Below, one piece after another: positions 18,281-62,524 of a stretch of DNA of 64,000 nucleotides. The position numbers and the translations under genes are program-made. Every line of letters starts with the position of its first letter. The stretch's first letter is position 1. The notes below the pieces were generated by a model. The model saw only the letters and a program-made list of their open reading frames with translations, did no database searches and was not told the origin of the DNA. Source of the DNA: Octopus sinensis (lineage: Eukaryota); NCBI RefSeq assembly GCF_006345805.1, contig NC_043011.1, forward strand, positions 5,270,001 to 5,334,000, read 5' to 3'.

Positions 18281-19163
18281 TTTTTTACACATATGTATAT
18301 GCACGTGTATATATATATGTGTGTATGTATGTATGTATGTATGTATGTATCATCATCATCATCATCATTTAACATCCGCTTTCTATGCTAGCATGGGTTG
18401 GACGATTTGACTGAGGTCTGGCAAACCAGACTCCATGTATGTATGTATGCATGCATGGTCACACCAGTTTTATCCTGTCTCCACCTCCACTTAGAACTTT
18501 TCTTGGACTATTCTATCTGGATTCTCTACCTGAACTTTCTTCTACTCTCCTATACCTGGACTCCTACACTTCGGCTGCACCTCTCCTACCCATAGATCAC
18601 ACTGGACTCTTCCTTTGATGAGAAATCGCTCCAATACACCACAACCTTTTGAACTTTTCTAAACTATTTTGTAGTTTCTGCTTTTTCCTATTCTTCCCCT
18701 TTCTCTTTGATCTCCCCTTCTTCCTAGCTCTCCTGTGTGACCCCTCTGTCTGCCATTCACCATGATAGATTGCTAACCACTAAACCTTTTTCTATTTTCT
18801 CTCCCTGTTTATTTCTGTGTTCCTTTCTGTCGAAGAGCGTAGGCTCGAAATGTAAAAGACTTTCTCACTGCCCGAGCATTAAATTAATACATCTGTTTGT
18901 GGTTCGTTTACACACCTGTCTTCATCTTTTGTTTTTTTGTAAATTCTCACAATATATATATATATATATATATATACTCTTTTACTCTTTTACTTGTTTC
19001 AGCCATCCGGCTGAGGCCATGCTGGGGCACCATATCTAATGTAGGATAAAATTTTTTCGCAAAAAAAAATTTTATCAATGGGCAGCATATTAAAAAACAC
19101 CTTTAAAGGTTAAATTATAACAACTTATAAACACTTCGTTTGCCCTTATTTATAAGTTGTATA

Positions 19164-19210
<47 letters not shown>

Positions 19211-19211
<1 letters not shown>

Positions 19212-22200
19212 GTCCCCCCCACATCTCCTTCCCAGTTTTCAGAGTTGGCACTATCAATGTTGGTACATTGACAGGCAAGTCTAGTGAGATTGTAGAGATG
19301 CTAGAGAGAAGACAGGTTGATGTATGCTGCATACAAGAGGTAAGATGGAGAGATGCTTCGGCTAGGGTCCTCACGGGCAAGGCACTTAGGTACAAACTCT
19401 ACTGGCAAGGTAACGCGGAAGGTGTAGGGGGTGTAGGCATTCTCCTTGCGGAGGAATGGGTGGATAAGGTCATAGAGGTTGTCAGGGTTTGTGATAGAGT
19501 GCTTAAGCTCAGGTTGGTCCTACAGAGTGGCACAGCTATGATTATCTCAGCCTATGCCCCACAAGCGGGACTACCAAATGATCAGAAGGACAACTTTTAT
19601 GATACCCTTCTGCAGGCTACTTCAAAGACTAGTAACAAGGACCTCATCTTTGTAGGTGGAGATTTTAATGGGCATGTTGGGCGGGAATCGGGTATCTTCA
19701 CTGGGGTACATGGTGGCTATGGTATTGGCACCAGAAATGATGAGGGAACTAGACTGCTGGAATTCTGTGATGCATGTAACCTTTCAATCTGCAACACTAA
19801 CTTCAAGAAGCCAGTCTGCCACCTTATAACTTATCAGTCAGGAGACTCCGCTAGCCAAAATAGACTTCATCCTCACCAGACAACGGGATGCAGGGTTGCT
19901 CTTGAATACAAAGACCCTCCCGGGTGAAGAATGTATCCCTCAGCATAGACTAATCATCAGTGACTTTAAGCTTGAGGCCAGAAGGACTCCAAGAAACAAA
20001 CCAATCCAGAAAAGAAGGATTTGGAGGCTAAAGAACCCTTCGCATGGTCAGAAATTTAGGGACATACTCATCAAGAAATTTGATGAGAGGGAGGAGGAGC
20101 TTCAGACGTCAGACATAGAAGGTAGCTGGGAATTCCTACGGGACAGCTTGTTGAGTGCCACAGACCAAGTCTGTGGATGGTGCAAAGTCCCTTCCAGACC
20201 TAGAATTACGTGGTGGTGGAATAGTGCAGTAGATAAAGCCATCTGTGAAAAGAGACGGGCCTGGAAAGCCTGGAAGGATGGGGGCAGCAGGGAACTGTAC
20301 CAGATAGCCAAAAGGGAGGCTGGGCGGCAGGTATACATTGCCAAAGATGTAGCAGAAAAGAAGAAGTTTGCCAATGTCCAGCGTCGCAAGGATCAAAGAG
20401 CTGAAGTATTTCGGATTGCCAGACAGTGTGTCAGAGAAAATAGCGATGTTATAGGAGAGAAATGTGTCCGCATGGATGATGGGGCACTTGCTTTTACTAC
20501 TAGTGAAAAGAAAGAGGCTTGGAGAAGCCATTATGAAAGACTGCTGAATGAGGAGAATGAATGGGAGGAGGAGAGCCTGCCAAATGTTGACCCAGTAGAG
20601 GGACCAGCTACCCGAATAGACAGCTCCCTTGTAGATAAGGCAATTAAGGATATGAAACCAGGCAAAGCCCATGGCCTATCAGGAATCACTGCTGAGATGC
20701 TTAAAACAGCTGGCTATGTGGGCTATGCCATAGTCACCCGCATTGTAAACCAGGTAGTTCACAATGGAGTCATACCCAATGACTGGTGCAGCAGCACCAT
20801 AGTCAACTGCTACAAGGGTAAGGGTGATGCTCTGGATAGAAATAACTACAGAGGTATCAAACTGTTGGACCAGGTGATGAAGGTCTCAGAGAAGGTCATA
20901 ACCAATCTCATTAGGGAGAGAATTTGCTTAGATGAAATGCAGTTCGGTTTTGTACCAGGTAGAAGCACCACTGATGCTATATTCCTGGTCCAACAACTGC
21001 AGGAGAAGTACCTAGCTAAAGATAAACCCCTCTACATAGCTTTTGTAGACTTGGAGAAAGCCTTTGACAGGGTTCCCCGTTCCCTTATCTGGTGGTCGAT
21101 GCGGAAACTGGAGATTGAAGAATGGCTAATAAGGGCTGTACAGGCTCTATACAGAGAGGCTGTCAGCAAGGTTAGGATTGGCAACGAATATAGTGAAGAA
21201 TTCCGGGTAGAAGTAGGTGTGCACCAGGGCTCAGCCCTCAGTCCCCTTTTATTCATCATAGTCCTTCAGGCAATAACAGAGGAATTCAAAACGGGATGCC
21301 CCTGGGAGCTCCTCTATGCCGATGACCTAGCTCTCATAGCAGAATCACTACCGGAACTAGAAGAGAAATTTCGGGTGTGGAAGCAAGGGTTGGAATCAAA
21401 GGGCCTTAGAATAAATGTAGCAAAGACCAAAGTATTAGTAAGCAGCAAGAGGTACTCAGCACACATCCCCTCGGGTAGGTGGCCCTGCTCAACCTGTAGG
21501 AAGGTACAGGTAGAAACTCCATAAGATGCACCCAATGTAAGTTATGGACACATAAGAGGTGCAGCAACATTAAAGGGAAATTAACAGATAAGATAGCTTT
21601 CATGTGCGGCAGATGCACAGGGACAATAGACACAACAGACACTCAGAAAACAGATTCCATCACACTCCAGGGAGAGAAACTAGAAGTAGTTGATAGTTTC
21701 CGCTACCTGGGTGACCAAGTTAGTAGCGGAGGTGGATGCACAGAGAGTATCACCACTAGAATACGAATAGCCTGGGCAAAGTTCAGAAAGCTCCTACCCC
21801 TACTGGCAACAAAAGGTCTCTCCCTCAGAGCAAAAGGTAGATTGTATGATGCATGTGTGCGAACTGCCATGCTTCACGGTAATGAAACATGGGCTGTGAC
21901 TGCAGAAGACATGCGTAGACTTGAAAGAAATGAAGCTAGCATGATCCGCTGGATGTGTAGTGTCAGTGTGCACGCAAAACAGAGTGTAAGTATCCTGAGA
22001 GAAATGCTGGATATAAGAAGCATCAGATGTGGTGTGCAAGAGCGACGCTTGCGATGGTATGGTCATGTGCTGCGGATGGATGAAGAGAGATGTGTGAAGA
22101 AGTGCCACTCCCAAACAGTTGAAGGTATCAGGGGGAGAGGTAGACCCAGGAAGACATGGGATGAGGTGGTCAAGCATGACCTCAGAGCATTGGGCCTCAC

Positions 22201-22630
22201 TGAGGCAATGGCGAAGGACCGAGATCTCTGGAGATATGCTGTGACTACAAAGACCCGGGCTGCTTTCTGCAGCAATTCCACATACCCCCTACCCATTCTA
22301 AGTACCCCGGATCCCCAAAGTACCCTGGATCCCCAAAGTACCCCGATCCCCAAAGTACCCCGGACCTCGTTGCCCCCGTGCCGCTGACACGTTAAAATGC
22401 TCGAACCGATCGTGACGATGCCGGACCCTCCGGCCCCTGTGCAGGTGGCACGTAAAAAGCACCCAATCCACTCACGGAGTGGTTGGCGTTAGGAAGGGCA
22501 TCCAGCCGTAGAAACTCTGCCAGATTCAGACTGGAGCCTGGAGCGGCCCCTGGCTTCCCAGACCCGGTCGAACCGTCCAACCCGTGCTAGCGCGGAAAGC
22601 GGACGTTAAACGATGATGATGATGATGATG
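19211..22630 (+). mobile_element. RTE-clade LINE, nearly full ORF (APE endonuclease + RT + PHD-like finger), two frameshifts, 3' UTR and (GAT)n tail
   Basis: APE motifs GTINVGTL, CIQEVRW, GDFNGHVG; RT motifs QFGF, FVDLEKAFDRV, GVHQGSALSPLLF, LLYADDL, FRYLG; C-terminal RRLRWYGHV and RGRGRPRKTW. Frameshifts near 19860 and 21503. Tail ends GGACGTTAAACGATGATGAT. Confidence 0.95.
22300..22366 (+). repeat. 18-bp tandem repeat (AAGTACCCCGGATCCCCA) x about 3.5 at the RTE ORF end/3' UTR
   Basis: Directly visible tandem units. Confidence 0.85.
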
Positions 22631-23016
22631 TACGTACACACACACACACAAACACATAACTGGCTTCTTTCAGTTTCTATCCACCAAATCTACTCACAAG
22701 TTTATAGTTGGCCTGGGGATATAGTAGGAAACACTTGCTCAAGATGTGTCATTTATACGTAACAAGTACGTATGTACGTATGTACATACATACATATATG
22801 TATATTTGTTATTCTTTTGTCTTTACTGTGTATACTACATACAAATGGATGTCTAACAAGATGAACAATGTCAATGAATAAATTAGCAATTTAATCTTCC
22901 CCATTCATCTACCTGCCTATTAATCAAGCCAACTATTTTTGTGTAATGAAGAAAGATAATATAGATCTGCTCTAACATGCTTCTCTTAAGGTCAAGCAAC
23001 AACAGCAGCAACAACA

Positions 23017-23412: not shown

Positions 23413-23599
23413 AAATGCAAGCTAGATCAACTTTGATATTGCAACTTAAAGCATCATGGTCTAAGATATAAAGCTATGCTATTGACAGAGTACAAACTTC
23501 TGACTTATAGGTAATCTAGCAAATGGAGACATGTAGTAAAGAAATAGGTACTGGTTCTGTTACTCTCTTAAAGCAAACCATTAAGTTATAGGAGTGTGA

Positions 23600-23928: not shown

Positions 23929-23930
<2 letters not shown>
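23600..23930 (-). mobile_element. SINE family D (old tRNA-derived SINE); second copy at 29030-29340
   Basis: Minus strand ATGGCTTAGTGGTTAGGG...GAGTTTGATTCC...GTGTCCTTGAGCAA. Confidence 0.65.
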
Positions 23931-23967
<37 letters not shown>

Positions 23968-26230
23968 TACATATTCATATATACACAAAGGGCTTTCGGA
24001 GTTTCCATCTATCATTCGGAGTTTCCACCAATTCATTCATAAAGTATTAATTGACTCGAGGTAATAGCAGAAAGCACTTGCCCAACGTGCTGTACTGTGG
24101 GATTGAACCCAAAACTATGTGGTTTCAAAATGAGCTTCCTGACCATACAACTGAGTCTGGACCTATGATTACATTGCTACAATCAGGATTTGAAATTGTT
24201 ATGAACATAACATAGGTGCAGGAGTGGCTGTGTGGTAAGTAGCTTGCTAACCAACCACATGGTTCCGGGTTCAGTCCCACTGCGTGGCATCTTGGGCAAG
24301 TGGCTTCTACTATGCCTTGTGAGTGGATTTGGTAGACGGAAACTGAAAGAAGCCTGTCGTATATATGTATATATATATAAGTGTGTGTGTGTATATGTTT
24401 GTGTGTCTGTGTTTGTCCCCCTAGCATTGCTTGACAACCGATGCTGGTGTGTTTACGTCCCCGTCACTTAGCGGTTCGGCAAAAGAGATCGATAGAATAA
24501 GTACTGGGCTTACAAAGAATAAGTCCCGGGGTTGATTTGCTCGACTAAAGGCGGTGCTCCAGCATGGCCACAGTCAAATGACTGAAACAAGTAAAAGAGT
24601 AAATAACATCCTAGTGTTTTATTCCCTTTTTGAGAGAGATATTAGAATAAATTTATTAACAATATGCGAATATGAAGCACAATATTTGACATAGCTTGAC
24701 ATGAATTAGTTGTGTCAACAATGAAAGGCAATCTGTCAACCTGATGAGGACTAACAGCCATTTGTTAACAACTGAGCACATAGCTTTTCTAAACAGAATA
24801 TCTGCCAGCATAATCATCATCATCATCGTCGTCGTCATCATTTTAACGTCTGCTTTTAAATGATTGCATAGGTTGGATGGAGTTTGTTGAGGCATATTTT
24901 CTTTGGCTGGATGCCCTTCTTACTGTCAAACCATCCCTGTTTCCAAGCAAGATAATGTTTCCTCATTGTCAGATGTTTGCGTAGAATAATGAATTCTATT
25001 CATTTACAACTATCATATCAAGACAAGGACATGTACACAGACACATATGTATGTATGTATGTGTGTGTGTGTGTGTTTAACCGAGAAACCGGCTCTTATG
25101 AGCCAGGCATGGCTCGAGAAGGAACAGACAACAAAAAGTACCATCAAAGATGTGATAGTAAAATAAATAAAAACTGAGTCAAAGCAAAGCATAACAACTT
25201 ATCTAACCCATGCCAGCATGGGATGCAAGGCGTGGCTGTGTGGTAAGAAGCTTGCTTCTCAACCACATGGTTCTGGGTTCAGCTCCACAGTATGACACCT
25301 TAGGCAAGTGTCTTTTACTACAGCCTTGGGTCAACCAAAGCCTTGTGAGTAGATTTGGTAGACGGAAACTGAAAGAAGCCCATCATGTGTATGTGTGTGT
25401 GTGTATGCACCCCAACCCCTGGCTTGACAACAGGTATTGGTGTGTTTGCCTCCTTGTAACTTAGCAGTCCAACAAAAGTGACCAATAGAATAAGTAATAA
25501 GCTTTAAAAAAGGGAGTGAGCCAGTCAAATGGCTAAAACAAACTAAAAATAAAAGATAAAAGATATATATATTACGTGGGATCACGTGACCGACCAGGCT
25601 ATCAGATGTTGTTACACATCGCTGGTCACAATGCGCTTTTTGCATTGTTTTAGCCTTCAAATGACGCCAACCCGTTGGCTAAGCGAGCAGGCCAACAGGA
25701 GAAAGAGAGAAAGTTGTGGCGAAAGAGTACAGTAGGGATTGCCACCACCCCCTGCCGGAGCCTCGTGGAGCTTTTTAAGTGTTTTCGCTTAATAAACACT
25801 AACAACGCCTGGTCTGTGAATCGAAACCGCGATCCTACAACCGCAAGTCCGCTGCCGATTTGAATAATCAAACTTATGCTTTTTTCAAGTTATATTAGTC
25901 ATAATAATTGTGCAACATCTGTTTCAATTGCACTAATTGCATATTTATATGCATTGATTTATGCATTACTGGTATGATCACTTCAGGGTATACAAGTACG
26001 ATATTGTTCAAGGAAGAATTTTCCTCTGTTATTAGTTTGAATTAAGCTTGGTAGTAGTAGTAGTAGTAGTAAAGCATGACATTCATCAATGAGCTGTTTT
26101 TCTCAACTGATTGTTTGGGTAAAATCCAGCAGCAGCAGGGTTTGTTGAGGTTGGCAAATGTCCTTAGTTAGTTGGGCAGTGGTTATCTATAGAATATGTT
26201 TCTTTTGACTGATATATATATATATATATA

Positions 26231-26604
26231 TAACGGGAAGGTTTACGAAAATAAACAAAAGACGAAGGCAGGTGGAGTACAAACAAACAAATGTTTTAGT
26301 ATGGCGCTCAGGAATAGAAATAAAACAAGTCTTTTACGTTTCGAGCCTACGCTCTTCAATAGAAAGATACACAAAAAAGAAACAAGGAGAGAAATACACA
26401 CACACACACACATATATATATGATAAATGTATATATGTATATAACGGGAAGGTTTACGAAAATAAACAAAAGACGAAGGCAGGTAGAGTACAAACAAACA
26501 ATTGTATTAGTATGGCGCTCAGGAATAGAAATAAAACAAGTCTTTTACGTTTCGAGCCTATGCTCTTCGACAGAAAGATACACAAAAAAGAAACAAGGAG
26601 AGAA

Positions 26605-26607
<3 letters not shown>
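26231..26607 (-). mobile_element. Tandem dimer (211-bp period) of a short hammerhead-like-motif element (retrozyme/PLE-derived)
   Basis: Units 26231-26396 and 26442-26607 separated by CA/TA microsatellite; motif TCTTT-CTGTCGA-a-GAGC-RTAG-GCTC-GAAAC-GTA-AAAGA at 26541-26578 and, degenerate, at 26330-26367. Related plus-strand copy at 18790-18950. Confidence 0.7.
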
Positions 26608-26670
<63 letters not shown>

Positions 26671-27591: not shown

Positions 27592-28271
27592 TAGCCGGCC
27601 AGAATGCTAGAAGAAGACCATCAACGATCAAACTAAAAGGGAAATTCTCTAGAGGAAGAATTCAGCGAACACCAGAACCAACTTTGGCGGGCAGGACATA
27701 TGAAAAATTAAATAAATAACAGACTTAAATGCATACCTCGGTTTCGGTCTTAACAAAAGAATTACTTGCATAATTCAAGTGTCCGTGACTTCATCAGTAC
27801 ATTTGGTCCTCGAGATGCAAACCGCAAGACTAACCCCAGCTCTCTGTGTCAGGACAGACACGTGCTTAGTCTTACTGATTACATCGGGAATAAAATTTCA
27901 AATGTCTTGGTTCTGAAGCCCTTCGCTTCAGGAGTCTCTCAGCGCGCCAGAACCAAGACATTTGAAATTTTATTCCCGATGTAATCAGTAAGACTAAGCA
28001 CGTGTCTGTCCTGACACAGAGAGCTGGGGTTAGTCTTGCGGTTTGCATCTCGAGGACCAAATGTACTGATGAAGTCACGGACACTTGAATTATGCAAGTA
28101 ATTCTTTTGTTAAGACCGAAACCGAGGTATGCATTTAAGTCTGTTATTTATTTAATTTTTCATATGTCCTGCCCGCCAAAGTTGGTTCTGGTGTTCGCTG
28201 AATTCTTCCTCTAGAGAATTTCCCTTGTAGTTTGATCGTTGATGGTCTTCTTCTAGCATTCTGGCCGGCTA
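27592..28271. repeat. Near-perfect palindrome: 324-bp arms, 32-bp spacer
   Basis: 27592-27915 is the reverse complement of 27948-28271, with one mismatch seen. Confidence 0.97.
28059..28136 (+). ncRNA. Minimal type I hammerhead ribozyme (mirror copy on the minus strand at 27727-27804)
   Basis: AAATGTA-CTGATGA-aGTC..long stem II..GACc-GAA-ACC-GA-GGT-A-TGCATTT: 7-bp stem I, GUA cleavage triplet. Confidence 0.8.
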
Positions 28272-42589: not shown

Positions 42590-43881
42590 CGAGGGGCGTT
42601 CAATAAGTAATGCCCCTGACCCACTTCCCATAGCAGTAGAGCAACGAAACTTGGCACAGTTATTAGTCTTTTTCTACATAGGAACCACCCAGAGTTACGC
42701 ATTTCTCCCATCGTTTGATGCAGCTCTGGAGACCGTTTTTGTAAAAGACCCCAGCTTGGTCCTCCAACCACAACGTGACTTCAGAAATCAAGGCTGCATC
42801 ATCTGGGAAACGCTTTCCTTTCAAAAACATCTTCATGGCTGGGAAGAGGTGAAAACCAGAGGGTGCAAGGTCAGGAGAGTAGGGCGGATGGGGGAGGAGT
42901 TCATAGCCGCACGCCTGTGCTTCTGATCTGGCGACACGCGAGTTGTGGACCGGAGCGTTGTCCTGCAGGAGGAGGATGCCTTTGCTGATCTTGCCCCGCC
43001 TCTTGATGCTGATAGCTTCTCTTAATTTCTTCAAAAGTGAAGCATAATAGGCTCCTGTAATTGTGGTACCCTTTGCCAGGAGATCTGTCATCACTACTCC
43101 GTCCTGGTCCCAGAAGACTGAGTATGACCTTGCCAGCGGAGGGCTGCACCCTTGCATTCTTTGGAGGAGGTGAGTCACGGTGCTTCCACTGCATTGACTA
43201 GGCTTTGGTCTCTGGATCATAGTGATGGACCCAGGTTTCATCCTGTGTAATCAATCTTTTGAAAAATTTTGACTCATCTTCTTGGCACATCTCCAAATTC
43301 ATCCTCGTGCACTCGACGCGTTATTGCTTCTGGAAAGGTTTGAGCAACCTGGGAATCCATCTGGCAGACACCTTTTGCATATGCAAATGGCCATGAATGA
43401 TAGTTTCCTCAGACCCGGTACTAATCTTGACCTCATGGGCTATTAGGCGAATAGTTATGCGTCGATCTTCCAAAATGGCAGCCTCAACTTGACAGACAGA
43501 TGCCTCATCAATAGCAGAAGGGGGGCGACCAGATTTGGGAGCTGTTTCCATAGAGTTCTGACCATGTTTGAATTCACGATGCCAGCGTTTTACAAGGTCA
43601 TATGATGGGGCATCATCACCATAAGTTACTTTCATTTCATCAAAAGTCTCCCGTGGTGTGCGTCCTTTCAAATACAAAAACCGGATCACTGCTCGCCACT
43701 CAACAGGCTCCATTTCACACTTGACTCAGTTCAAACACCTGTAAATCAGAAACCACAATTAGTTCAGAGCTGTAATTTGCCACTTAATCTATAGAGATAT
43801 AAATAATTACACATGGAAAAATTCCAGCTAGATCAAACAACTGCAAGTGGGTCAGGAGCATTACTTATTGAACGTCCCTCG
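42590..43881 (-). mobile_element. Full-length mariner (Tc1/mariner, DD34D type) transposon with disrupted transposase
   Basis: 37-bp TIRs CGAGGGGCGTTCAATAAGTAATGCCCCTGACCCACTT (2 mismatches), TA TSD. Motifs WIPRLL, ITQDETWV, QDNAPVH, HPPYSPDLAPS. Stop at 43321 plus a frameshift. Inserted in the microsatellite of a SINE. Confidence 0.96.
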
Positions 43882-44379: not shown

Positions 44380-46970
44380 ATTGCACTGTTTCCCTAGCCT
44401 TGAATAATCAGAAATACTACCATGTGAAACTACGTGCTCAGAAACTTGTGCACTGACCTAATTCTGGGTACGGACTTCCAAGAACAGCATGAAAGTATAT
44501 ACGGAGGACAGAGATCACCATTAACATTTACTGCGCTAACAGCTATGAAAACTGATCCTCCAAAACTATTCGCTCATCTCAGAGAGGGCTGTAAACCTAT
44601 TGCAGCCAAATCGCGAAAATACTCGGAACGTGATCGAGAGTTCATCAGGACAGAAGTACGCCGCTTAGCAGATGCGAACATTATTGAACCTAGTAACTCC
44701 CCATGGAGATCGCAAGTGTTAGTTGTTCAAAAAAAGAAAAAGGTGAAGAATGGTGATTGACTACCCAGAGACGATTATCAAATATACACAGCTTGGTGCC
44801 TACCCCTTTCCTAAAATTGATGAGTTAGTGAACACTATTGCCAAGTATAAAGTCTACAGTACTATAGAATTACGTTCGGCATGCCATCAGATTCCTCTAT
44901 CAGAGAAAGACTGTCAATTTACTGCCTTTGAAGCTGATGGTAAATTATGGCATTATACTAGGATTCCATTCGGAGTAAATAACGGCAGTGCATGATTCCA
45001 ACGTATAATGGACGACTTCGAGAGTAAATACAAGCTGCGAGATACGTTCCCATTCATAGACAATTTAACCACATGTGGGAAAGATCAAAATGACCACGAT
45101 AAAAATTTAGAAAAATTTGAAATGGCAGCAAAAAGTGAAGGGCTTACCATGAATGAAGACAAGTGCGTTTACTCAACAACAACTCTTGACTTTCTTGGAT
45201 ACCGTATCGCGCACAACAACCTCAGCCCTGATTCAGTAAGGCTTGTTCCACTCTTCAATCTTCCTATACCAACTGACCAGAAATCATTAAAACGTATAGT
45301 CGGTATGTTTTCTTATTATGCTAAGTGGATCTCCATATTTTCTGACAAAATATATCCTCTAAATAACGTATTAAAATTTCCTTTAAACAGCCAACGAGTA
45401 AAAGCGTTTGAGTCATTAAAAGTAGAACTAGCCAATGCTGCCATTCAAGTAATAGATGAGGACATTCCATTTACTGTTGAGATGGATGCTTCGGATTTTG
45501 CCATATCTGCGACACTAAATCAAGATAGAAGACCAGTCGCATTCCATTCTCGCACGCTGCAAGGTAGCGTGCAAGCAATTATCGAATCAATTCATCATTG
45601 GAGACAATTTCTTCTAGGTAGACATTTTACATTAATTACTGACCAACGCTTTGTTGCATTCATGTATAATTATAAAGAGACGAGTAAAGTTTAAAATGAT
45701 AACATTATGAGATGGCGCATTGCGTTATTTCCATACTCATATGATATTCGCTATCGTCCAGGACTCAGTAACATCACTCCGGATGCATTCACAAGGTTAC
45801 GCTGTTCAGAAATTAGTTCACATTCACTTTATGAGTTACATGCAGCACTGTGCCATCCTGGTGGAGTACGCCATCATCATTTCGTCTGCAGTAGAAATCT
45901 TCCATATTCGTTAGAGAACGTGAAACAAATATGTAGGCATTGCTCTATATGTCAAGAAGTGAAACCACAATATTATAAACCAGACTCAGTTAACTTAATT
46001 AAGGCCATGCAGCCCTTCGAGCGAACTTCCATCGATTTCAAAGGTCCGATTCCTTTCACGAAGCATCCTTATCTTCTAACAATAGATGACGAATACTCTC
46101 GGTTTCCGTTTGGTTATCCGGTATCTGACACATCAGCTCGGACTGTAATAAAGTGTCTTACTGACTTGTTCTGAGTTTTCGGTATGCCCAGTTATGTACA
46201 TTCAGATCGTGGAACTACCTTTATGTCTTCAAGATTGAGAGAATGGCTCCTCAGTAAGGACATTGCAACGAGTAGGACGACACCATACAGTCCCACTGAG
46301 AACAGTCAAGTAAAGATATAATGGTATTATTTGGAAGTCAGTACTACTCCCTTTGAAAACCCGTGCCCTTCAGTATCTTCATAGGAAACAGTTCTTCCAG
46401 GCGTGTTGCATTCAATTAGATCTCTACTTTGTACGTCCACTAACGCCACTCCTCATGAAAGTCTTTTTAACTATCAAAGACGTTCAGCAACAGGAACCTC
46501 TATGCCAACATGGCTTCTTAACCCAGGACCTGCGCTTGTTCAAAGGAACAATCGCACTAACAAGTATGACCCTATCGTGGACCAAGTTGATTTAATCGAA
46601 GCCAACCCCCAATACGCTCACGTCCGTTACCCTGACGGTCGCGAAACCACAGTATCCACAAAACAATTGGCATCACCAGGGAAGACTAACCCAACTGATA
46701 ACCTAACCTAAACCTTTGTCTCTCAAGAGCCACACAGAGAGCCAACTGAAATTTCTCCTCCTCCTAGAGATAACCGCCAAGAACAAAATGACGAATCCCC
46801 GCAGCAGCGTCGATCATAAAGGATTCGGAATGCCCCGGGAAGGCCTGATCTATGATTCTTTTTCCTTCTTTTTCTAGGAGGGAGTGAATGTTATGCAAAT
46901 AACGTTGATATAAAGAGCATGCGCATTTGACAGGAAGAGGAAGAGAGAACGGCCATTCGGAATAACGTAC
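44380..46970 (+). mobile_element. Decayed Ty3/gypsy LTR retrotransposon pol (protease remnant, RT, RNase H, integrase), PPT and start of the 3' LTR
   Basis: DLILGTDF, EPSNSPWRS, IDY, AYPFPKID, FIDN, DASDFAISATL, HPG, IDFKGP, HSDRG. PPT AGGAGGGAGTGAA at 46876-46888 then TG at 46889. Many stops and frameshifts. Confidence 0.93.
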
Positions 46971-47967
46971 AGGATTATGACTAAAAATTAGTTTCTTTGA
47001 ACCAAGATTTAATGGCTATACATGACAATCCCCTACAAACCTATGCAACATCAGACGCTCAGTCTCCTGTCCTTTAGATAACCACTGCCTCACGAAAAAC
47101 ATCGTTTACAAGTGTACAGTATCAGCTGCCAACTGTAACTACATAGGTATATCGGCACATGCAGCACCTCCTTTAAAATGATAGTGAGTAACTACTACTC
47201 CAGTTTCAAGTTCCAAACAAAATCCAACAACACATCGTTATTTCAGTTTATCAATAATCTAAAGATTGATTCAACTCGTTCCATCCTCAAGTAGTCCATA
47301 GTCACCCACGTCAAACCATACAGCAACTATAACAAGGGTGATCTCTGCATAGCCGAGCTCTTAGCTATTTTGTAATCCACGAACTGTCTTAATGAACGCA
47401 GCAGTATAATTTTTACCTGCGAACATCGATCACTAAATCTATTCTCAAAATACAAATAACAACAACCCCACCTCGCTTTTTTACTCCTAACCTTCATAAA
47501 TTTTCTCTCACTATCACTATATATTAAATCAACAGTATATCTTCCCATTAACTCCTTATTGTCATTTACATACTTCTCTCTGTATTTTTCCTTACTATTT
47601 AAACAAAAAGAAATTCTCTTATTTCACCTGTCTCCCTCCCCTGAACTTACAAGTACATACGCCAGTATACATCTCTAATACTTCATACTGTAAACACGCT
47701 CACCGCACACAACATAAAATCCTCAACTGCAAGCCACTCGTAGCCGCCACAATTCTTCCCCATTCTCTCTTGCTTTCTTCATGCATACTTTTTTCTTCAC
47801 CTTGACCATAAATATTTCCTCACCCTCTTCCCTCCACATTATCGTTTTTCAAATACCACTCCCCTTGCTAATTTCTGTGATTCGGCCAAAACAACCTTAT
47901 TGAATACTACCATTCAATTGCCCTTTCTTAAATTCCTCATTTCTCTCACTTCCTTATGTTCTTTTCA

Positions 47968-48198
47968 GGCGGCGAGCTGGCAGAAACGTTAGCACGCCGG
48001 GCGAAATGCGTAGCCGTATTTCGTCTGTCGATACATTCTGAGTTCAAATTCCGCCGAGGTCGACTTTGCCTTTCATCCTTTCGGGGTTGATAAATTAAGT
48101 ACCAGCTTCGCACTGGGGTCGATGTAATCGGCTTAATCCGTTTGTCTGTCCTAATTTGTCCCCTCTGTGTTAAGCCCCTTGCGGGCAATAAAGAAATA
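47968..48198 (+). mobile_element. SINE family B (tRNA head plus Nin/Deu-like domain GACTTTGCCTTTCATCCTTTCGGGGTCGATAAA)
   Basis: Copies at 1140-1374, 2130-2362(-), 3091-3325(-), 11100-11327, 13979-14398 (internally duplicated), 28522-28740(-), 54345-54730 and 58500-58698(-). Confidence 0.88.
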
Positions 48199-48341
48199 TT
48201 TCTTTCTTCTTTTAATCATTATTTCTCTCTGCATTTATATTCTCCACTCCTACTGGGCTCTCTATAGATTATTGATTGAATCTTCCATGTGCTAACACGT
48301 ACTTCCTTGCGACAGAGTAAACTTTCATCTAATCAAGATAT

Positions 48342-48433
48342 TCTTGGCCTGAAGAATAGCTTGCGGTATACACCACGCTTGGCTATTTACCACTTCCGAG
48401 GTTCCACTCACTATGAAACATATGTAACCCGGA
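48342..48433 (+). ncRNA. Hammerhead motif of the 47-48 kb PLE, degraded stem I
   Basis: CTGAAGA-ATAG...CTAT-GAA-ACATATGT-A. Confidence 0.65.
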
Positions 48434-48460
48434 TCTTATCTATAACATTCCTTATCTCTC

Positions 48461-49014: not shown

Positions 49015-49047
49015 ATATTATATATATATATATAATATATATATATA

Positions 49048-51386
49048 GTTAATCTTTATTCTAACATCCCTCACAACCTAGGAATAGAAGCGATCACCTT
49101 CTGGCTGAATAACTACCCCTTTGAACTCCCAACTCGCATAAACAAAGACCTTATAATAGAAGGACTTAGATTTATTCTCGAAAACAATTACTTTATTTTT
49201 GACAATAATTTCTACAGACAAAGATCAGGAACAGCGATGGGCACGCGTACTGCACCATCTTTTGCCAACCTAGTGATGGGATACCTCGAGAAAATACTCT
49301 ACCGGATAACACTCGAGAAATTTGGAAACACCTTCTCCACCTATATCCAGAACAACTTGAAAAGATACCTCGATGACTGTTTCATCATCTGGGACAAAAG
49401 TATAGAGAAACCTGAGGAATTTAAAATACTATTAAATGGAATAAATGATAATATACAATTCACGATGGATCATAACGAAGAAGAATTACCATTTTTAGAC
49501 ATCCTCATTAAGAAAACCGGCAACAAATTAGAGACAGATATCTACTATAAACCGACAGACTCTAAACAATACCTACCCTTTGATTCATGCCACCCACGAC
49601 ACACTAGAATAAATGTCCCTTTTTGTTTAGCTAGAAGGATCTGCACCACAATATCAGACACAACACCCGACACACACGTCTCCAGGAACTTAGAACCACA
49701 CTCACAATAGAAACTATCCACAGCCCAATAGACAGTGCAATCCAAAGGGCACTCAAATTAAGTATAGAAGACCTGAGACAAACAAAACCAAAAAAGAAAG
49801 AACAATTAAAAACCCTTCCCTACATCTCTACCCAACAACCCACTCAACAATGAGGCCTTCAGCACCATACTACAAAGCACAGCCCTACTAAAGGGAGACC
49901 CAAAGATGAACCGGATCCTCGAAACACACACCATCATTAAAAGTAAACGGCAACCAAAATCCTTGAGAAGGATTTTAACCCAAGCTAAACTGCACTCAAC
50001 ATCAACCACAAAACCAGCAGTTAGAAAATGTGGAAGGCCCAACTGCGGAATCTGTGTCATCTTGATTTATACTAGAATTTATACTAGAACAAGGCCATCA
50101 GTTCACCATTAGAGCAAACTTCACCTGCGCATCAGAAAACTTAATTTACATCATAACATGCGCAGGCTACAATAGGCAGTATATAGGCCATACAAAAAAT
50201 AGCTTACGTAACAGGATGGCGGTGCATAAATCACAAATTAGAAACCCTGAATACCGGAAAATACCGGTCAGCGGACACATAGATAGATGTGCTGGAAATG
50301 TAAATCCGAAATTTACAACTTACCCGCTTTATAAATTCAGTGACAGCGTAACCTTCACACAACGCCAAAATAAAGAACTGTATTTCATCAAAAAATTTAG
50401 ACCAAGTTTGAACACCCCGGGCTAGGAATATTAAAACAAAAGATTGGTCCTCCGAAAAGGAGAAGCGAAATTCCACCACGGCCGCTGCCTTAAACAGTCA
50501 CTCACACTGACAGAAATATGTCTTAGGGAAAGGGAAAAAAAATCATAAAAAGATCTCTACGAGCAGATCTAATCCTGATTCGTCAAGAAACTGATGACGT
50601 ATTACCTCAGTGGGCAATCTATTGTCACCCTGCTTGGTCGGTTTCCACATACGATACAGCTACGGGTCAGACCCGATTCTGATTGGTCTAAACATTGATG
50701 ACGTCTCGTTCTGCTGGACTAGCCACCTAACGAGATGATTGGTCAAAACAGTGATGACGTCACGTTCCGCTGGACTAGCCACCTAACAGGATACAGACAT
50801 GGGTCAGATCTAATACAGCTATAGGTCAGACCCGATTCTGATTGGTCGAAACATTGATGACGTCCCGTTCTGCTGGACTAGCCACCTAACGAGACGATTG
50901 GTCAAAACTTTGATGACGTCCCGTTACGCTGGACTAGCCACCTAACAGGTGATATAAGACCCAAACATTTCACAAGATTCACCAGAACTATTCGAACAGA
51001 CACCAACCAACAGTCATCACAGTTGCTCCCATTGGAACACAAGGTAAAACCTAAAATGAATTCCTCGCTTTTTCAAGAACATGAATATTTTATATATTGA
51101 ATGCATATCACCACTATGAACTACTACTTCATACTCTTTAAACATATAGCATGGACTCGCTCCACTATATATGAATTTTTTTATTATATATGAATTTTTT
51201 ATATTTGATAGCATGAACTATCTTTTTTATATATAAATTTTTTTTGATAAGGTTCGTCATTTCAAGAACCGAAACATGTTAAATAAATAATGTATATATA
51301 AAAATCAAAAATTTGTCTAATATAGCATCATTTTCAAACTTCATTTTTTACAAATATATACCCACTCGTATACGAGCTAATCTTAT

Positions 51387-51446: not shown

Positions 51447-51448
51447 GA

Positions 51449-53556
51449 CTAGCAGAAATACCCGGCGTTGCACGGGTTAAAGAAAAAATTAAAATTTAAA
51501 AACGCCGTCTAGATTACGCAGGTCTCAACTGCTAGTAGCTAAGATACCAACTTTGTATGTAACTCTGCAACACATGCCAACATGGAACATAGACGTTAAG
51601 TGAAATGCGAAAAGAAAGTTTTCAACTGATATATGTATATAAAGTAAATACACGTTTGTCTAACTTATTTCGTAACCAAAAAAAAACAGGTACAGATTAT
51701 AAGCAATGAAAGGCCGTGCGTAGAGTACACAAGCACACTCACACACACACACAAACAGACAGCGAATATATCACGTTATTGTTTCACTTTTATACACACA
51801 GATATACATCCATGCATGTCAGTCGAAAAGTGAAAGTGTAATAGTGATACTTTAACACTCAATGGTTTTACACTTCTGTATATGACATGGACCTATGCAT
51901 CTTCATACACTGTTTTCTGTCTTGCCATGTTTATCGCTGAGAATGTAGAGGTTCTTTTCACCTCCAACTCTAGGACATCCAGCATACAACTGACCATGTG
52001 AAGACACAAGGTTGAAGGAGGCTAAGTCCCATCACCTTTAGAGATTGACCTTGAGCTTTGTTGATAGACATTGCAAAGCTAAGTTTGACAGGAAACTGCA
52101 GTCTCTTAAATTGAAATGGGAGATCATTTGAGATGAGAGGTATCCTTGGAATGAAGACATTGTAACCCTTCATGTTGTCATAATGAAGAAGCGGTTTCTC
52201 AGCTGCATAGGAGACTTGCACATTTGTGCCTCTGCCAGAGTAGTATCCCAGCGTGCATCATCTTCTAGAAGACCTCTGAGATGGCAAGCCTGGTGATATG
52301 TTTGACATACTGTGTTATAAGGCTGTAAATGATGTGGGTCCCTTAACATGGTGTAATAGAAGCCTTAGATAGTACAGGATTATGACTAAAAATTAGTTTC
52401 TTTGAACCAGGATTTACTGGTTATACATGACAATCCCCTACAAACCTATGCAACATCAGACGCTCAGTCTCCTGTCCTTTAGATAACCACTGCCTCACAA
52501 AAAACATCGTTTACAAGTGTACAGTATCAGCTGCCAACTGTAACTACATATGTATCGGCACATGCAGCACCTCCTTTAAAATGATAGTGAGTAACTACTA
52601 CTCCAGTTTCAAGTTCCAAACAAAATCCTCGAATTGAAGTGGGCTCCGGTGAATTATCAGAAATTCCCCACCCCCTTCTAAAACACCTACCCCGCAAAAT
52701 TTTGTATATTCGAAATCTACATGATATAACACATATTCGTAGAAAAGTTTAGTAAAAAATATGCATTTTTCTGAAAGTTATGATCATCCAAATTGGATAT
52801 GGGTGGGGACAGTTATGACAAATTTGACACTTTCCTTCCAGGCTTGGTTATATATGTATACAGAAATAAACGAGTGCCGAAGATAGTAAACAATGAAAAT
52901 GACTTGGTAACGGAAATTATATTTCTTAATACGACGGGCAGAAAGTAAATAAGAAATTTTTAACGGGAAATATTGTACGGGTTGGAAAGAAATTTGTCAC
53001 TCAGTGAACCAAAGAGGAACCATCGAAGGAACCAGAAAGAAGCTGACAACAGAAAAACACAAAAACATACGGATTGAAATGAAATTTAGGAAGACAGCTC
53101 TGTCAGTAAATTATGAAGTTACTTACATCAGTAATTGTGAACTTCTTTCTGTCAGTACTTCGTTGTTGTTTGTTTGTAGTAACGATTGAAAACTTAGTGA
53201 AAACAATAACACGGAGGTTAAGCAATTGAAGGTGAAAAGAATAGTGTCTGAAAATTGAAAGTGAAAACAAGAGCTATATATGTTACAGAGAGATAGAGAG
53301 ATATACATAAAGTTATGTTACGTCACTGGCGCTAGAAAACCGGAAGTCAATATTTTAAAACTTTCAAAGACGTGAATGTAATATAAAAAGCAATATTTAT
53401 TATTTCTAATAATTTTTAATAAAAAAAATCAAATGAACAGCCTTTTATTTGTCCGAGGTCAAATTATTCATGCATCACAAGTATGGAAGCAATTGGTGAA
53501 GCCGTTTTCGTGTGGTAAGTGAAGACGCACTCATCTCTATTTTATATATTATTAGA
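51449..53556 (-). mobile_element. Non-autonomous Helitron with internal RepHel fragments
   Basis: 5' TC after A; 3' hairpin CCCGTGCAACGCCGGG then CTAG before T. Fragments YYLRLLLHHVKGPTSF, TYHQACHLRGLLEDD and VFIPRIPLI...FKRLQFPVKLSFAMSINKAQGQSL (PIF1 helicase). Confidence 0.92.
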
Positions 53557-55592: not shown

Positions 55593-55637
<45 letters not shown>

Positions 55638-56381: not shown

Positions 56382-56412
<31 letters not shown>

Positions 56413-57920: not shown

Positions 57921-57985
<65 letters not shown>

Positions 57986-58025
57986 GTATATATATTATAT
58001 ATATATATATATATATATTATTATA

Positions 58026-58072
<47 letters not shown>

Positions 58073-58906
58073 CGACGGGCTTCTTTTTTAGTTTCCGTCT
58101 ACCAAATCCACTCACAAGACTTTGGTCGGGGCCCGAGGCTATAGTAGAAGACACTTGGAACTGAACCTGGAACCATGTGGTTGGTAAGCAAAAAAAAAAA
58201 CAATATTGGCCAAAATCAGTACTGAGTATAGTGGCGTGATTGAAAAAAAAATTCAGTCTTTCAATTTTTTTTTATTTGTCTCCTGTTGTTTTTAAATACG
58301 TAGTGCGCAAAAAGGAAAAGGGGAGAGAGAGAGAGAGAGAAAAGGGGACAAACGCTATCCGAAAGTGGAGAAGGGAGATTGATAAATTTTCGTTTTTTCA
58401 TAAAAAGCTTCCTTCTGTCATTTGCAAGGGTGTTGTGAAAAACAAATTTGAAAAATTCTTATCAGAGCCGAGAAAATCCAACTTATTTGAGTGTATTATT
58501 CTTTTCTACTCTAGGCACAAGGTCCGAAATTTTAGGGGAAGAGGCCAGTAGATTAGATCGACCTCAGTACACAACTGGTACTTAATTTATCGACTCCGAA
58601 AGGATGAAAGGTAAAGTCAGCCTCTGCGGAATTTGAACTCAGAACGTAAAGACAGACGAAATACCGGCGTGCTAACGTTTCTGCCAACTCGCCGCCTTAT
58701 GAGAGTGTACTTTTCTGAAAGTACGCCAAAGACTTTCGGAATAGCACACCTACATAGCAAAAGTGTGAATATCAGCCGGCAACGACGGGATACTCAGCTA
58801 GTGTGTGTGTGTGTGTATGGACAGACCATAGTTGAGCTCCAGATTCGATAATTATACGAATGACGAGTCCAATGTAGGTCATGTATTAACATGTATATAT
58901 ATATAT

Positions 58907-59828
58907 GGCCTAGCATGTATAAAAATTCAATAGACAGCATATTCTCAATATAAAATAGTGTCTTTTTAATCACAAGAGAAACTACCTTTAACAGGTAGTT
59001 TTACACGCTAGAAGAAGCAGTCAAAACGACCAAAACCACATTTAAGAACAATTTCGAAGGGAATGAAAAATAAAAACTTTTAACTTGTTATTTTTTACGT
59101 ATATGATTTTAGCATTTCGAAGATCAGCTCGGCATTTTTCATTTACTGCCGACTGAAACTGCGCTTGCGCGGTGAATTTGAAAACATTATAACATATAAT
59201 GATGAGACACGTGTTATTTGTCTCTAAATTAAATGTTATGTTATGTATTAATGTTATTTTTGCGGTTGAAGCTTTGGCTGTTATTTCTAGTGGGTGAATG
59301 GCCTATTATGGCCGTTCCTTGATTGTTATGTTTGAACTTAAAAATGGTCTATGACTATTTAATTTTTTTCCCACTAGGCCGCTGGTGGCAAAAAAATTCT
59401 ACAAAATTTTTTGGCACCCTATATTGATTAATTATGAATTTTCTGGTTAATTCCGTAATGGAATCGGCGGCTTATATTTATTTGCTGCCGATAAATTTGG
59501 CGCGAGTGCGATGATTTGAAAATTTTAGGTCAGATATTGCCGAGGCGGGACGGAAAGCCTCGTGAAAAATATCTGTTCCGACTTGGCTATTTCTTACTGA
59601 TGATTCTAAGGGCCTATGGAAGATTGGCTTGATTTAATTTAATCAGTAGTTTACCATTAAACAGTAGATGAAACGGTGCATCGTATAAGAAAATTACAGG
59701 GTAATGTTTTTTTATTTTCTCCTGGTTTACGAATTGATGTTATTTTTGCGGTTGAAGCTTTGGCTGTTATTTCTAGTGGGTGAATGGCCTATTATGGCCG
59801 TTCCTTGATTGTGATGATATATATTATA

Positions 59829-59872
<44 letters not shown>

Positions 59873-60435
59873 TCTATATATAATAGTGTACAATAAACAC
59901 AAGAGAAGCTACCTTTAGCAGGTAGTTTTACACGCTAGAAGAAGCAGTCAAAACGACCAAAACCATATTCAAGAGCAATTTCGAAGGTAAGGAAAAATAA
60001 AAACTTTTACCCTGCTTATTTTCCTTTTACGATCATATCTAGATTTCGAATTTTTCTAGTAAATAAAATAACTTGCTAGGCGAAATTCTCATCAGTAACT
60101 GCGCCATAACATTAACATTTAATTTAGAGACAAATAACACGTGTCTCATCATTATATGTTATAATGTTTTCAAATTCACCGCGCAAGCGCAGTTTCAGTT
60201 CGGCAGTAAATGAAAAATGCCGAACTGATCTTCGAAATGCTAAAATCATATACGTAAAAATAACAAGTTAAAGTTTTTATTTTTCATTCCCTTCGAAATT
60301 GTTCTTAAATGTGGTTTTGGTCGTTTTGACTGCTTCTTCTAGCGTGTAAAACTACCTGTTAGGTAGTTTCTCTTGTGATAAAAAGACACTATTTTATATT
60401 GAGAATATGTGTCTATTGAATTTTTTACATGCTAG

Positions 60436-60438
<3 letters not shown>
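58907..60438. mobile_element. Foldback structure with about 340-bp inverted arms, internal direct repeats and a hammerhead; likely an inverted PLE pseudo-LTR arrangement
   Basis: 58907-59245 is the reverse complement of 60105-60438; direct repeat at about 59251-59326 and 59737-59812; third partial arm at 59898-60010; (TA)n flanks. Confidence 0.85.
60029..60102 (-). ncRNA. Minimal type I hammerhead ribozyme, canonical core
   Basis: GCAGTTA-CTGATGA-GAATTT...AAATTC-GAA-ATCTAGAT-A-TGATCGT: 6-bp stem II, palindromic stem III, AUA triplet. Confidence 0.82.
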
Positions 60439-60523
<85 letters not shown>

Positions 60524-60658
60524 GGGAGATGTACTCGCATAGCAAGTAATTTGATCTGAGATCGTGTGCTGAAACGAAAACAATTGCAGCGTGGAAGGTG
60601 TTTATAAGCCTTTAAGAAAACACACAAGGCCGTCGATTCACTTCAACATTAAGTTTAA

Positions 60659-60708
60659 TTTGTCAAAATATTTTCGTCGCTAAAATCCGCGACCTGTTCA
60701 CTGACAAA
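60659..60708 (-). ncRNA. Hammerhead-like motif with G3-C8 swapped core
   Basis: TTTGTCA-GTGAACA-g-GTCGC-ggatttta-GCGAC-GAA-AATATT-T-TGACAAA: perfect 7-bp stem I, 5-bp stem II, palindromic stem III. Confidence 0.75.
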
Positions 60709-60744
60709 GTCCGTGCTGCACTGGTTGGTATATATATATATATA

Positions 60745-61730
60745 CTGGACAGGATACAGACAAGGGGCAGAGATTAGTCAGAATATTGATGACGTCCTTT
60801 TCTGCTTGACTAGTCCCTAACAAATACAGACAAGGGGCAGACCTAATACAGCTATAAGGTCGTGATTGTCAGAATTTTGATGACGTTCCGTTCTGCTTGA
60901 CTAAGCCACCTAACGAAACGATTGGTCATAACAGGATACAGACAAGAGGCAGTTATAATACAGCGATAGGTCACGATTGGTCAGAATGTTGATGACGTCC
61001 CGTTCTGCTTGACTAAGCCACCTAACGAAACGATTGGTCATAACAGGATACAGACAAGAGGCAGTTATAATACAGCGATAGGTCACGATTGTCAGAATGT
61101 GATGACGTCCCGTTCTGCTTGCTAAGAGCCACCTAACGAAACGATTGGTCATAACAGGATACAGACAAGAGGCAGTTATAATACAGCGAGAGGTCACGAT
61201 TGGTCAGAATGTTGATGACGTCCCGTTCTGCTTGACTAAGCCACCTAACGAAACGATTGGTCAAAACGTTGATGACGTCACGCTACGCTGGACTGACCAT
61301 CTAACAGTGTTATAAAACCCGACAATTCACAAGATTCGCCAGAATCATCCAGCGAACACCCCCATTGGTCATCACAGTTGCTCAAGGTAAAAATGAATTC
61401 CTCGCTCTTTCAGGAACATCAATTTTTTATATGACTGCATTCCACCACTTTGATCTATTTTTTATATATCACCACCACGAACCACTGCATCATACACTTT
61501 AAACATATAGCATGAACGAACTCACTTCAAACTAAATATGAACTGTATGATGTCTGACTCCATTGTATATTATAAATGAATTTCTTATATTTGATAGCAT
61601 GAACTATCTTTTTTTATATATAACTTTTTTGATAAGGTTCATTTCAGGAACTGAAACATGTTATAATGTATATATAAAAATTAAAAATTGTATAATATAG
61701 CAGCATTTCGAACTTCATTTTTTACAAATA
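60745..61730 (+). mobile_element. Solo pseudo-LTR/3' UTR of the same PLE family as 49048-51390, with a 111-112 bp tandem array
   Basis: Colinear similarity to about 50690-51355 (GATTGGTC...GATGACGTCCCGTTCTG, CACAAGATTC, TTGATAAGGTTC...GAAACATGTT); flanked by (TA)n. Confidence 0.85.
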
Positions 61731-61778
<48 letters not shown>

Positions 61779-61819
61779 ATATATATATAGAATATATATA
61801 TATATATATATATATAAAT

Positions 61820-62524
61820 TAACAGAATAAGATAAAAAAAAAACAAGGCAGTGAATAGTTTTCATAACATTTATAAACAGAAGGTCCTCACAGCTGTTTC
61901 GAGTATTTTATATATCCCTTCATAAGGGACGGTGCGAGAGAATGTTTAAGTAATAGTTATAGATAAGACATGAAATACGAGTGAAGTGGAGGAATGAAAA
62001 CAGACGTGAGATACGTAAGGATATTGTATCTGCAGTTTCATTATTTAAGCAGAATGGTGTATATATAAGTTTCCTGTACGTTGTGTTTGAGTTTCATTGG
62101 TATTTGTAATTGGTCATTCCAAGCATAGAGTCTTGTAAACGGTGTTATTCGATGGAGGGCTTAAAAGTTGGGAATGTGTTTGTAAGGTCAAATCAAAAAC
62201 AGGAAGAGGGAGACAAAAAAGGTGGGGAGAGACAATAAATAAATGAAGAAAGAGGTGTGCTAGCTAGTAGTCAGGATAAAATGATAGAAGGAAGGGAGAG
62301 ATGAGGAGGAGAGAGAGAGGAAGAGATGAGAGGGTAAAGAGTAAAAGAGTGTGAGGTATGTTGTGATAGAGCTTAAGGGATTGGGCATAGAAAATATAGA
62401 GAAAAGGTACGGGATAAGGGTAGAAAAATTGAGGTGGAATGAAAACTGGGGAATATAAGTTAAGTTTCGTAAAAGGACGGGTTAGTACTGAATAATAGAA
62501 GAACTGAAGAATTTACATCTGTAA
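61820..62524 (-). mobile_element. Probable PLE 3' UTR remnant with a degenerate hammerhead
   Basis: Pyrimidine-rich minus strand ending in a hammerhead-like motif (61884-61930) next to (TA)n. Confidence 0.5.

Follow-up and report, generated by a model that had tools for sequence, protein, structure and literature searches.

Hammerhead ribozymes of a minimal type are known from Penelope-like elements (PLEs), and the current work describes such motifs in a 64-kb stretch of the Octopus sinensis genome (positions 5270001-5334000 of contig NC_043011.1 in the 2.72-Gb assembly), referred to below as the window. The parts of the published sources drawn on here describe several closely related systems. 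In PMC4209133 (Cervera & De la Pena 2014), minimal hammerheads lie in the pseudo-long terminal repeats (pLTRs) of PLEs, with many families per genome, opposite-strand pairs and a U3-A8 family, and these ribozymes cut weakly, solely as dimers. Retrozymes of the type without long terminal repeats (non-LTR retrozymes) are defined in PMC7229834 (Cervera & De la Pena 2020), and a preprint (10.64898/2026.07.22.740005; Li, Clavereau, Pollet 2026) derives retrozymes from PLEs and gives a unit range of 51-972 bp. In the Poseidon PLE of Anolis (PMC11167929; Frangieh et al. 2024), the hammerhead needs protein to cut, a C3G/G8C double mutant partly rescues, and hammerhead cleavage is dispensable for insertion in vitro. 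Natural U3-A8, A6C, U4C and two-base-pair stem II variants are reported in PMC3088659 (Perreault et al. 2011); A6C is strongly impaired in Mg2+ (up to 10^4-fold; PMC7151607), and the tertiary pair between positions 3 and 8 forms in the active conformation (among PMC3884650, PMC6155905, PMC13725137). The anatomy of PLEs and their (TA)n bias are described in PMC8557442 (Craig 2021). Hammerheads in PLE ends, retrozyme-like derivatives and natural U3-A8 pairs, including those in PLEs, are known already; the octopus adds new detail to this known system, namely natural G3-C8, A3-U8 and U6 families and maps of the copy ends of three families (B, E and F below).

About eleven hammerhead motifs from several unrelated families had been proposed for the window in an initial annotation made from its sequence. 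A hammerhead-shaped motif is present at all of the places concerned (11/11), and the numbers noted there match the stem ends almost to the base. The core positions are 18827+, 26362-, 26573-, 27797-, 28066+, 48349+, 51244+, 60095-, 60701-, 61629+ and 61926-. Seven repeat families were recovered, designated A (18827, 26362, 26573), B (27797, 28066), C (48349), D (51244, 61629), E (60095), F (60701) and G (61926), in agreement with the proposed diversity. The eleven motifs amount to about nine insertions, in that 27727/28059 belong to one inverted insertion and 26330/26541 form a tandem pair, and four of the copies (26362, 61926, 48349 and 61629) are damaged. Every motif of the window is one copy of a multi-copy family with 289-3,898 first-look candidates genome-wide, and 40 relatives per family were scored in each genome search. 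The motifs are probably minimal type I folds that reside in the pLTRs of PLEs (A, C, D, F and presumably G) and in two tandem units without an open reading frame (ORF), B and E. Their positions are as follows.

18823..18858, plus strand: family A motif; core CUGUCGA (C3-G8, U6) with an extra A; stem III AUGU (ACGU in the family).
About 18711-18951, followed by (TA)n: 5'-truncated PLE 3' end bearing the 18827 family A motif.
26330..26367, minus strand: first unit of the tandem pair; its family A motif has decayed to CUAUUGA in the core (G5A).
26541..26578, minus strand: second unit of the tandem pair; its family A motif keeps the U6 core intact.
26210-26623: family A tandem pair of 211-nucleotide (nt) units.
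27727..27804, minus strand: left arm of the inverted insertion, with a family B motif whose core is CUGAUGA; stem II long and irregular, stem III ACCGAGGU.
28059..28136, plus strand: family B motif; right arm of the head-to-head inverted insertion.
27592-27922 and 27941-28271: family B insertion, head-to-head arms of an ORF-less 543-nt unit.
47036..48460, plus strand: decayed PLE 3' part with the family C motif; ends at (TG)n.
About 47062-47430, plus strand: broken Hydra-like GIY-YIG remnant upstream of the family C motif; clade label drawn from its features, linker motifs among them.
Near 47970-48200: insertion of a short interspersed nuclear element (SINE) between the GIY-YIG remnant and the family C motif.
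48349..48432, plus strand: family C motif; CUGAAGA, loop 2 of about 50 nt, stem III ACAUAUGU; closing pair of stem I lost.
49046..51385, plus strand: 5'-truncated family D PLE between two (TA)n tracts.
49036-50425, plus strand: frameshifted reverse transcriptase (RT) and GIY-YIG ORF of the family D PLE.
51241..51283, plus strand: family D motif; UUGAUAA (U3-A8), stem III ACAUGU, weak stem I; in the PLE 3' end.
59885..60438, minus strand: family E insertion; ORF-less unit of ~440 nt, 5' part inverted, (TA)n on the flanks.
60032..60099, minus strand: family E motif; canonical CUGAUGA, long stem II, stem III AUCUAGAU.
60525..60722, minus strand: family F insertion, ~200 nt long and with (TA)n tracts on both sides; represents the 3' end of a second PLE lineage and starts at the family-preferred 5' end.
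60659..60708, minus strand: family F motif; GUGAACA (G3-C8) with an extra G; 7-bp stem I, 5-bp stem II, stem III AAUAUU.
60746..61730, plus strand: shorter 5'-truncated family D PLE copy, 3' non-coding part only; ends at (TA)n.
61625..61667, plus strand: family D motif with U3-A8, of the subfamily that has G10.1-U11.1 and an interruption in stem I.
61884..61930, minus strand: family G motif; decayed, CUUAUGA (G5U), G17; commonest core of the family CUGAUGA, stem III ACAGCUGU.
From (TA)n at about 61820 to at least 62525: family G element; no ORF found.

A genome scan with relaxed 3-8 and 6 positions and a comparison with shuffled sequence, both proposed in the initial annotation, came out in its favour. 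The strict descriptor comprised stem I, stem II with G10.1-C11.1, GAAA, a perfect palindrome and NUH, with positions 3, 6, 7 and 8 left free. It recovered 4 motifs in the window versus 0 in 99 of 100 block-dinucleotide shuffles and 1 in the remaining shuffle. From an unbiased genome sample of 1.0 Mb (100 stretches of 10 kb), 13 motifs were recovered versus 0 in nine shuffles and 1 in one shuffle, and 12 of these 13 were paired at 3-8, with both positions unconstrained. A relaxed descriptor yielded 17 motifs from the same sample versus 0-1 in six shuffles, of which 16 were paired at 3-8. The seven families together account for 26 copies in this sample (A 15, F 4, B 3, others 1 each), which would extrapolate to roughly 70,000 copies genome-wide. 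With 26 copies per Mb as the sample mean and 11 in 64 kb, the window is therefore locally rich.

Searches limited to the canonical core had been expected to miss many such elements, and they do: the cores of A and F, the two commonest window families (15 and 4 of 26 per Mb), are non-canonical, and both canonical-core descriptors and Rfam undercount. Rfam gave no match at gathering score for the window motifs, no hammerhead among the below-threshold matches listed (150 of 178 weak ones), and none in a short rescan of 59950-60430. Its microRNA matches in the window are microsatellite artefacts. A weak match at 59485, which is without G10.1-C11.1, was not counted.

Natural covariation at the 3-8 pair proved broader than was claimed from the window. 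At the level of families, C-G, U-A, G-C and A-U pairs are all found genome-wide, the A3-U8 family lying outside the window, and one homologous lineage holds three of them. The pair is C-G in all copies of B (58/58), E (23/23) and G (26/26), in 18/25 copies of C and in 52/64 of A; another 11 of the 64 copies of A have C-A, as CpG decay would give. It is U-A in D (49/49) and G-C in F (81/84). Under an open descriptor applied to 2.0 Mb of enriched DNA, each of the 13 multi-copy groups has a Watson-Crick majority (9 C-G, 3 U-A, 1 G-C). Position 6 is U in 60/64 copies of family A; it is A in families B-G and in a sister family of A. Reading the core of family A in another register, with an insertion in place of U6, breaks stem II and was therefore rejected by eye. 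Cores with U4C (CCGACGA, CCGAUGA) recur in several families, including the A6-keeping sister of A (L002, L058, L159, L169).

The A3-U8 family was uncovered by following GIY-YIG loci downstream. Its stem I is of 6 bp and its stem II of 2 bp, and its palindrome is ACCGGU; of its 1,273 candidates, 40 were scored, and these show 96-100% identity. In 20 stretches from 45 listed places and in three loci, the core AUGAAUA was present in 27 of 28 core-keeping copies. This is a young PLE family (L189:2059-2102, C12; also L364, L366 and L375-L394), about half of its copies carry a 3' tail, and one subfamily has a compensatory change in stem I. The homologous lineage mentioned above consists of F and two sister families (11 copies), in which 3-8 is U-A in 3, C-G in 2, G-C in 2 and U-G in 1; stem II is 96% paired there and contains two doubly changed pairs, and the covariation score of this lineage, 0.339, was reached by none of 500 shuffles (0/500). 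In a short endonuclease tree, the ORF of F and that of its U3-A8 sister are joined (99/96), and the A3-U8 family falls into a loose group, which is not firm (86/96), with the U3-A8 elements of D type. The 3-8 pair is therefore likely to have been swapped on at least two separate occasions. The sisters of F, whose cores have U3-A8 or C3-G8, can be seen at L310:1813-1905, L084, L075, L313, L243 and L288; the U3-A8 sister, too, has a preferred 5' end, from which head-to-head palindromes are made.

Families A, C, D and F, with seven of the motifs, are the 3' ends of 5'-truncated protein-coding PLEs. PLE protein matches were counted on the same strand and within 2 kb upstream of the motif (<=2 kb), with artefacts of SINE translation excluded. 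In family D, the motif lies downstream in 18 of 30 GIY-YIG loci, and a relative at L308, to which the window copy is 82% identical, has an open frame of 781 amino acids with RVT_1 and GIY-YIG before the motif. The family F motif lies ~900 nt downstream of a different GIY-YIG ORF. Upstream PLE protein matches were found in 5/83 copies of F, 7/61 of A and 4/24 of C. In family A, the upstream RT or endonuclease remnants are colinear over 1.1 kb and similar to the D protein (E 5e-10, 3e-12); the decayed upstream frames gave no Pfam match. Family C has only an endonuclease remnant upstream, which is colinear, with a SINE intervening in the window copy, and its carrier features fit the Hydra clade. 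Series of 5' truncations, 5' arms in inverted orientation and joints with (TA)n or (TG)n are seen in all four families, and most copies of A, F and G are just 200-400 nt long. The attribution of the motifs to PLE-type minimal hammerheads agrees with the presence of RT and/or GIY-YIG upstream in the longer copies of these four families, and the proposed insertion at (TA)n microsatellites with copy joints that run into (TA)n. The further claim of a population of short non-coding ribozyme retroelements stands for the ORF-less units B and E but is not supported for A, C, D and F, which are ends of coding PLEs.

The 3' non-coding part of the family D PLE contains tandem repeats of 56/112/159 nt that vary in copy number (window 50654-50949, 60824-61267). 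A second fragment of the family C endonuclease was seen 5 kb downstream (window 46956-46999, 52375-52560; 97% protein identity at 52467-52556), suggesting a local duplication. Several families elsewhere combine a 41-52-nt loop 2 with 8-nt palindromes (L147, L216, L303, L308, L312, L087), and two of these come after Hydra-like endonuclease remnants.

Families B and E are of another kind. Seven 543-nt units of B stand in tandem at L310 and three ~440-nt units of E at L312, in both cases with no ORF. Dispersed copies of both are circularly permuted and often longer than one unit, which fits a circle or an uncut multimer equally. In family B, 28 of 30 copies (several loci being near-identical duplicates) end at two internal TA-rich sites and continue into (TA)n; the 5' ends are scattered from -37 to -1166 (30 loci). 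Judged by these features, B and E are likely to be retrozyme-like units borrowing PLE enzymes. Copies of family G share one fixed 3' end, to which a tail may be added, and also show inverted arms; their upstream sequence is non-coding over at least 600 nt. This family is probably the 3' pLTR of a PLE lineage.

A footprint of cleavage was sought in the copy ends with queries lying wholly 3' of the predicted cut site. No copy starts at that site among 30 copies of family B (nearest +7) or among 29 mapped copies of family F (nearest -4); in a separate set of family B, 1 of 20 copies starts within 2 nt of it. Nothing in the copy ends points to cleaved RNA as the template. Because the commonest family carries U6 and 5' ends do not pile up at the cut site, cleavage looks dispensable for insertion. 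In family F, the start lies 50-60 nt upstream of the predicted cut in 16 of 29 copies, and a G precedes the start in 14 of the 21 copies stopping there with AG kept (palindrome arms counted twice), where the element itself has a pyrimidine. This preferred start is likely to be a transcription start with a copied cap G. A rival interpretation is a 3' splice site, to which the branch-point-like and pyrimidine-rich sequence just before it would correspond. The 5' truncation, the inverted 5' copy, the optional tail and the microsatellite target are all present and match the PLE features in the available part of PMC8557442.

Folding predictions bear out stems I and II in A, in F and in an intact copy of G, and partly in D and E. 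Stem II of family B is irregular, with a mean pair probability of 0.13, and the B and E motifs resemble the minimal type with a long stem II. The 61629 copy has one closing pair in stem I, and its G10.1-U11.1 is common to its whole subfamily. The stem III palindromes are ACGU in A, ACAUAUGU in C, ACAUGU in D, A(U/C)CUAG(A/G)U in E, AAUAUU in F and ACAGCUGU in G; that of B is imperfect (ACCGAGGU). Position H17 is never G except in the decayed 61926 copy.

In the explanation proposed here, the PLE endonuclease would nick (TA)n and the RT would copy RNA from preferred internal sites, so that insertion would proceed by target-primed reverse transcription at (TA)n, with RNA that is mostly uncut as the template. 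Truncation and inversion would leave short 3' pieces with one hammerhead each, and B and E would be non-autonomous units copied from circles or uncut multimers. The ribozyme is predicted to cut slowly, aided by a dimer or by PLE protein, and any cleavage may serve occasional trimming or circularisation of tandem transcripts rather than each insertion. Selection on source elements would keep the 3-8 pair, G5, A9, GAAA and the palindrome, and inserted copies would decay neutrally. A slow, dimer- or protein-aided ribozyme fits both dispensable cleavage and the kept 3-8 pair.

Several observations weigh against this explanation. In the F lineage, 3 of 11 copies are unpaired at 3-8, stem I is only 45% paired and aligns poorly, and the shuffles used as a control for covariation ignore the relatedness of the copies. 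The endonuclease tree is short and mostly unresolved, with 2 of 13 branches starred. Most of the A, C and F copies examined are too short to reach an ORF, and no PLE parent was found for B (2 incidental PLE protein matches, at one locus, among 56 copies examined), E (0/25 copies examined) or G (0/23 copies examined and 0/10 longer copies). Folding prediction fails for C and for the 61629 copy of D and is weak for stem II of B and stem I of D, and the model favours intermolecular stem III pairing in just 4 of 11 tested motifs.

If all seven families were independent short non-coding retrozymes spreading as circular RNAs, the form of B and E, with tandem ORF-less units and longer-than-unit, permuted copies, would be accounted for, as would the shortness of most A, F and G copies; the preferred 5' end of F also means that a short F RNA may be copied alone. 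In longer copies, however, A, C, D and F run colinearly into RT/GIY-YIG, and their 5' ends form a truncation series and never loop back to their own 3' ends. For D, the ORF at 49036-50425 upstream of 51244 refutes independent retrozymes within the window itself, and for the seven families as a whole this origin seems quite improbable. The fold might instead be kept for a non-catalytic job, as an RNA handle for PLE protein, a dimerisation palindrome, or a translation or promoter element, in motifs that no longer cut. The lack of a 5' pile-up at the predicted cut site would be expected in that case, and the broken stem I of the D subfamily beside the open ORF points the same way, as does U6 in 60/64 copies of the commonest family; A6C costs up to 10^4-fold in Mg2+ (PMC7151607, in the part available), and of 9 retrozyme dimers from Xenopus, only 1 was able to cut in vitro according to the consulted part of 10.64898/2026.07.22.740005. 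Against these points stands the 3-8 tertiary pair of the active conformation, kept through double changes in several lineages. Such changes are hard to explain without selection on the active core, and the survival of the pair through them therefore argues for this selection in source elements, so that a purely non-catalytic role is considered unlikely.

Chance folds in AT-rich repeats, with covariation arising from counting copies of few repeats, are largely refuted and highly improbable. Copies within a family are not independent, one of the double changes in stem II of F could be two CpG decays, and the window, with 11 motifs in 64 kb, lies above the sample mean of 26 per Mb for these families. 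Nevertheless, shuffled sequence gives 0-1 matches per Mb, the Watson-Crick majority at 3-8 extends over 13/13 multi-copy families and over B, C, G and the A-U family, and the motif is found at the same place relative to different PLE ORFs. Beyond the proposed explanation, a more far-reaching possibility is put forward tentatively and is judged less likely than not. PLE lineages may have fixed C-G, U-A, G-C and A-U at 3-8 and U at position 6, all of them catalytic when aided by dimerisation or PLE protein; B and E may be circular-RNA retrozymes primed by PLE enzymes where the circle matches nicked (TA)n; and F may have a further, SINE-like way to spread out of a PLE, through a 200-nt pLTR transcript that bears a cap, the extra G being a copy of this cap.

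Other mobile elements were also detected in the window. A retrotransposon of the long interspersed nuclear element type (19121-22387) has an endonuclease-like frame and RVT_1 (E 6.5e-30) in three frames, and a Mariner-type transposase remnant with a Transposase_1 match lies on the minus strand (42663-43725). A broken LTR-retroelement pol region (44428-46890) shows RT and RNase H matches and integrase-like frames, with a purine-rich tract at its end. A Helitron-like fragment (51447-52270) is situated in the microsatellite after the family D element, with a helicase-like peptide recognised by eye and no Pfam match. A very abundant SINE of ~400 nt with internal (TA/CA)n is spread over 5415-62934 in about 25 copies on both strands, and no hammerhead was found in it. 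A near-perfect hairpin of 114 nt with arms of ~48 nt occupies 11457-11570.

For the question of what hammerheads do in PLEs, this genome offers young, high-copy natural variants: they cover all four pairs at 3-8, U6 and a stem II of 2 bp, and their carriers include elements with an ORF alongside others that have none. With such variants at hand, it becomes testable whether catalysis or merely the fold is under selection. If the more far-reaching possibility is true, one animal genome amounts to a natural saturation test of the hammerhead core.

Literature searches found no natural G3-C8 or A3-U8, though figures or supplements may hold such variants, and no report of octopus hammerheads; a fixed U6 family was likewise not found, with hardly any search aimed at U6 itself. 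The searched portion of the PMC4209133 supplement has no octopus entry. As far as the available parts of PMC4209133 extend, the octopus motifs resemble its minimal hammerheads in being type I, with a short stem I, G10.1-C11.1, a palindromic 15-16 region and a U3-A8 family, in the extra nucleotide after A9 (in A, F and G), and in the many divergent families per genome, mostly solo 5'-truncated copies, with opposite-strand pairs. Unlike in that account, G3-C8, A3-U8 and a family-wide U6 are present here, and several octopus families have 6-8-nt palindromes and 30-50-nt inserts in loop 2.

Compared with metazoan retrozymes, as the consulted portions of the literature describe them, B and E are similar as ORF-less tandem units with one type I motif each in a genome that holds autonomous PLEs, and their unit sizes are within the 51-972 bp range of 10.64898/2026.07.22.740005. 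They differ in that their motifs look to be of the minimal type with a long stem II rather than the canonical loop-loop type, in having 3' ends at internal TA-rich sites joined to (TA)n, and in that no parent PLE was found among the copies examined. Poseidon, in the available part of PMC11167929, shares the hammerhead in the pLTR, two preferred 3' ends (the 'tail') and the lack of ends at the cut site; uncut RNA is the template there, and the same is proposed for the octopus elements. Poseidon primes without homology, whereas the 3' ends of octopus B and E lie in TA-like sequence matching the target, and its G3-C8 pair was engineered, whereas that of the octopus is natural. Finally, U3-A8 is the sole variant of the 3-8 pair and A6C the sole change at position 6 named in the part of PMC3088659 consulted, and both appear there as rare single cases, whereas the octopus variants are families of thousands of copies.

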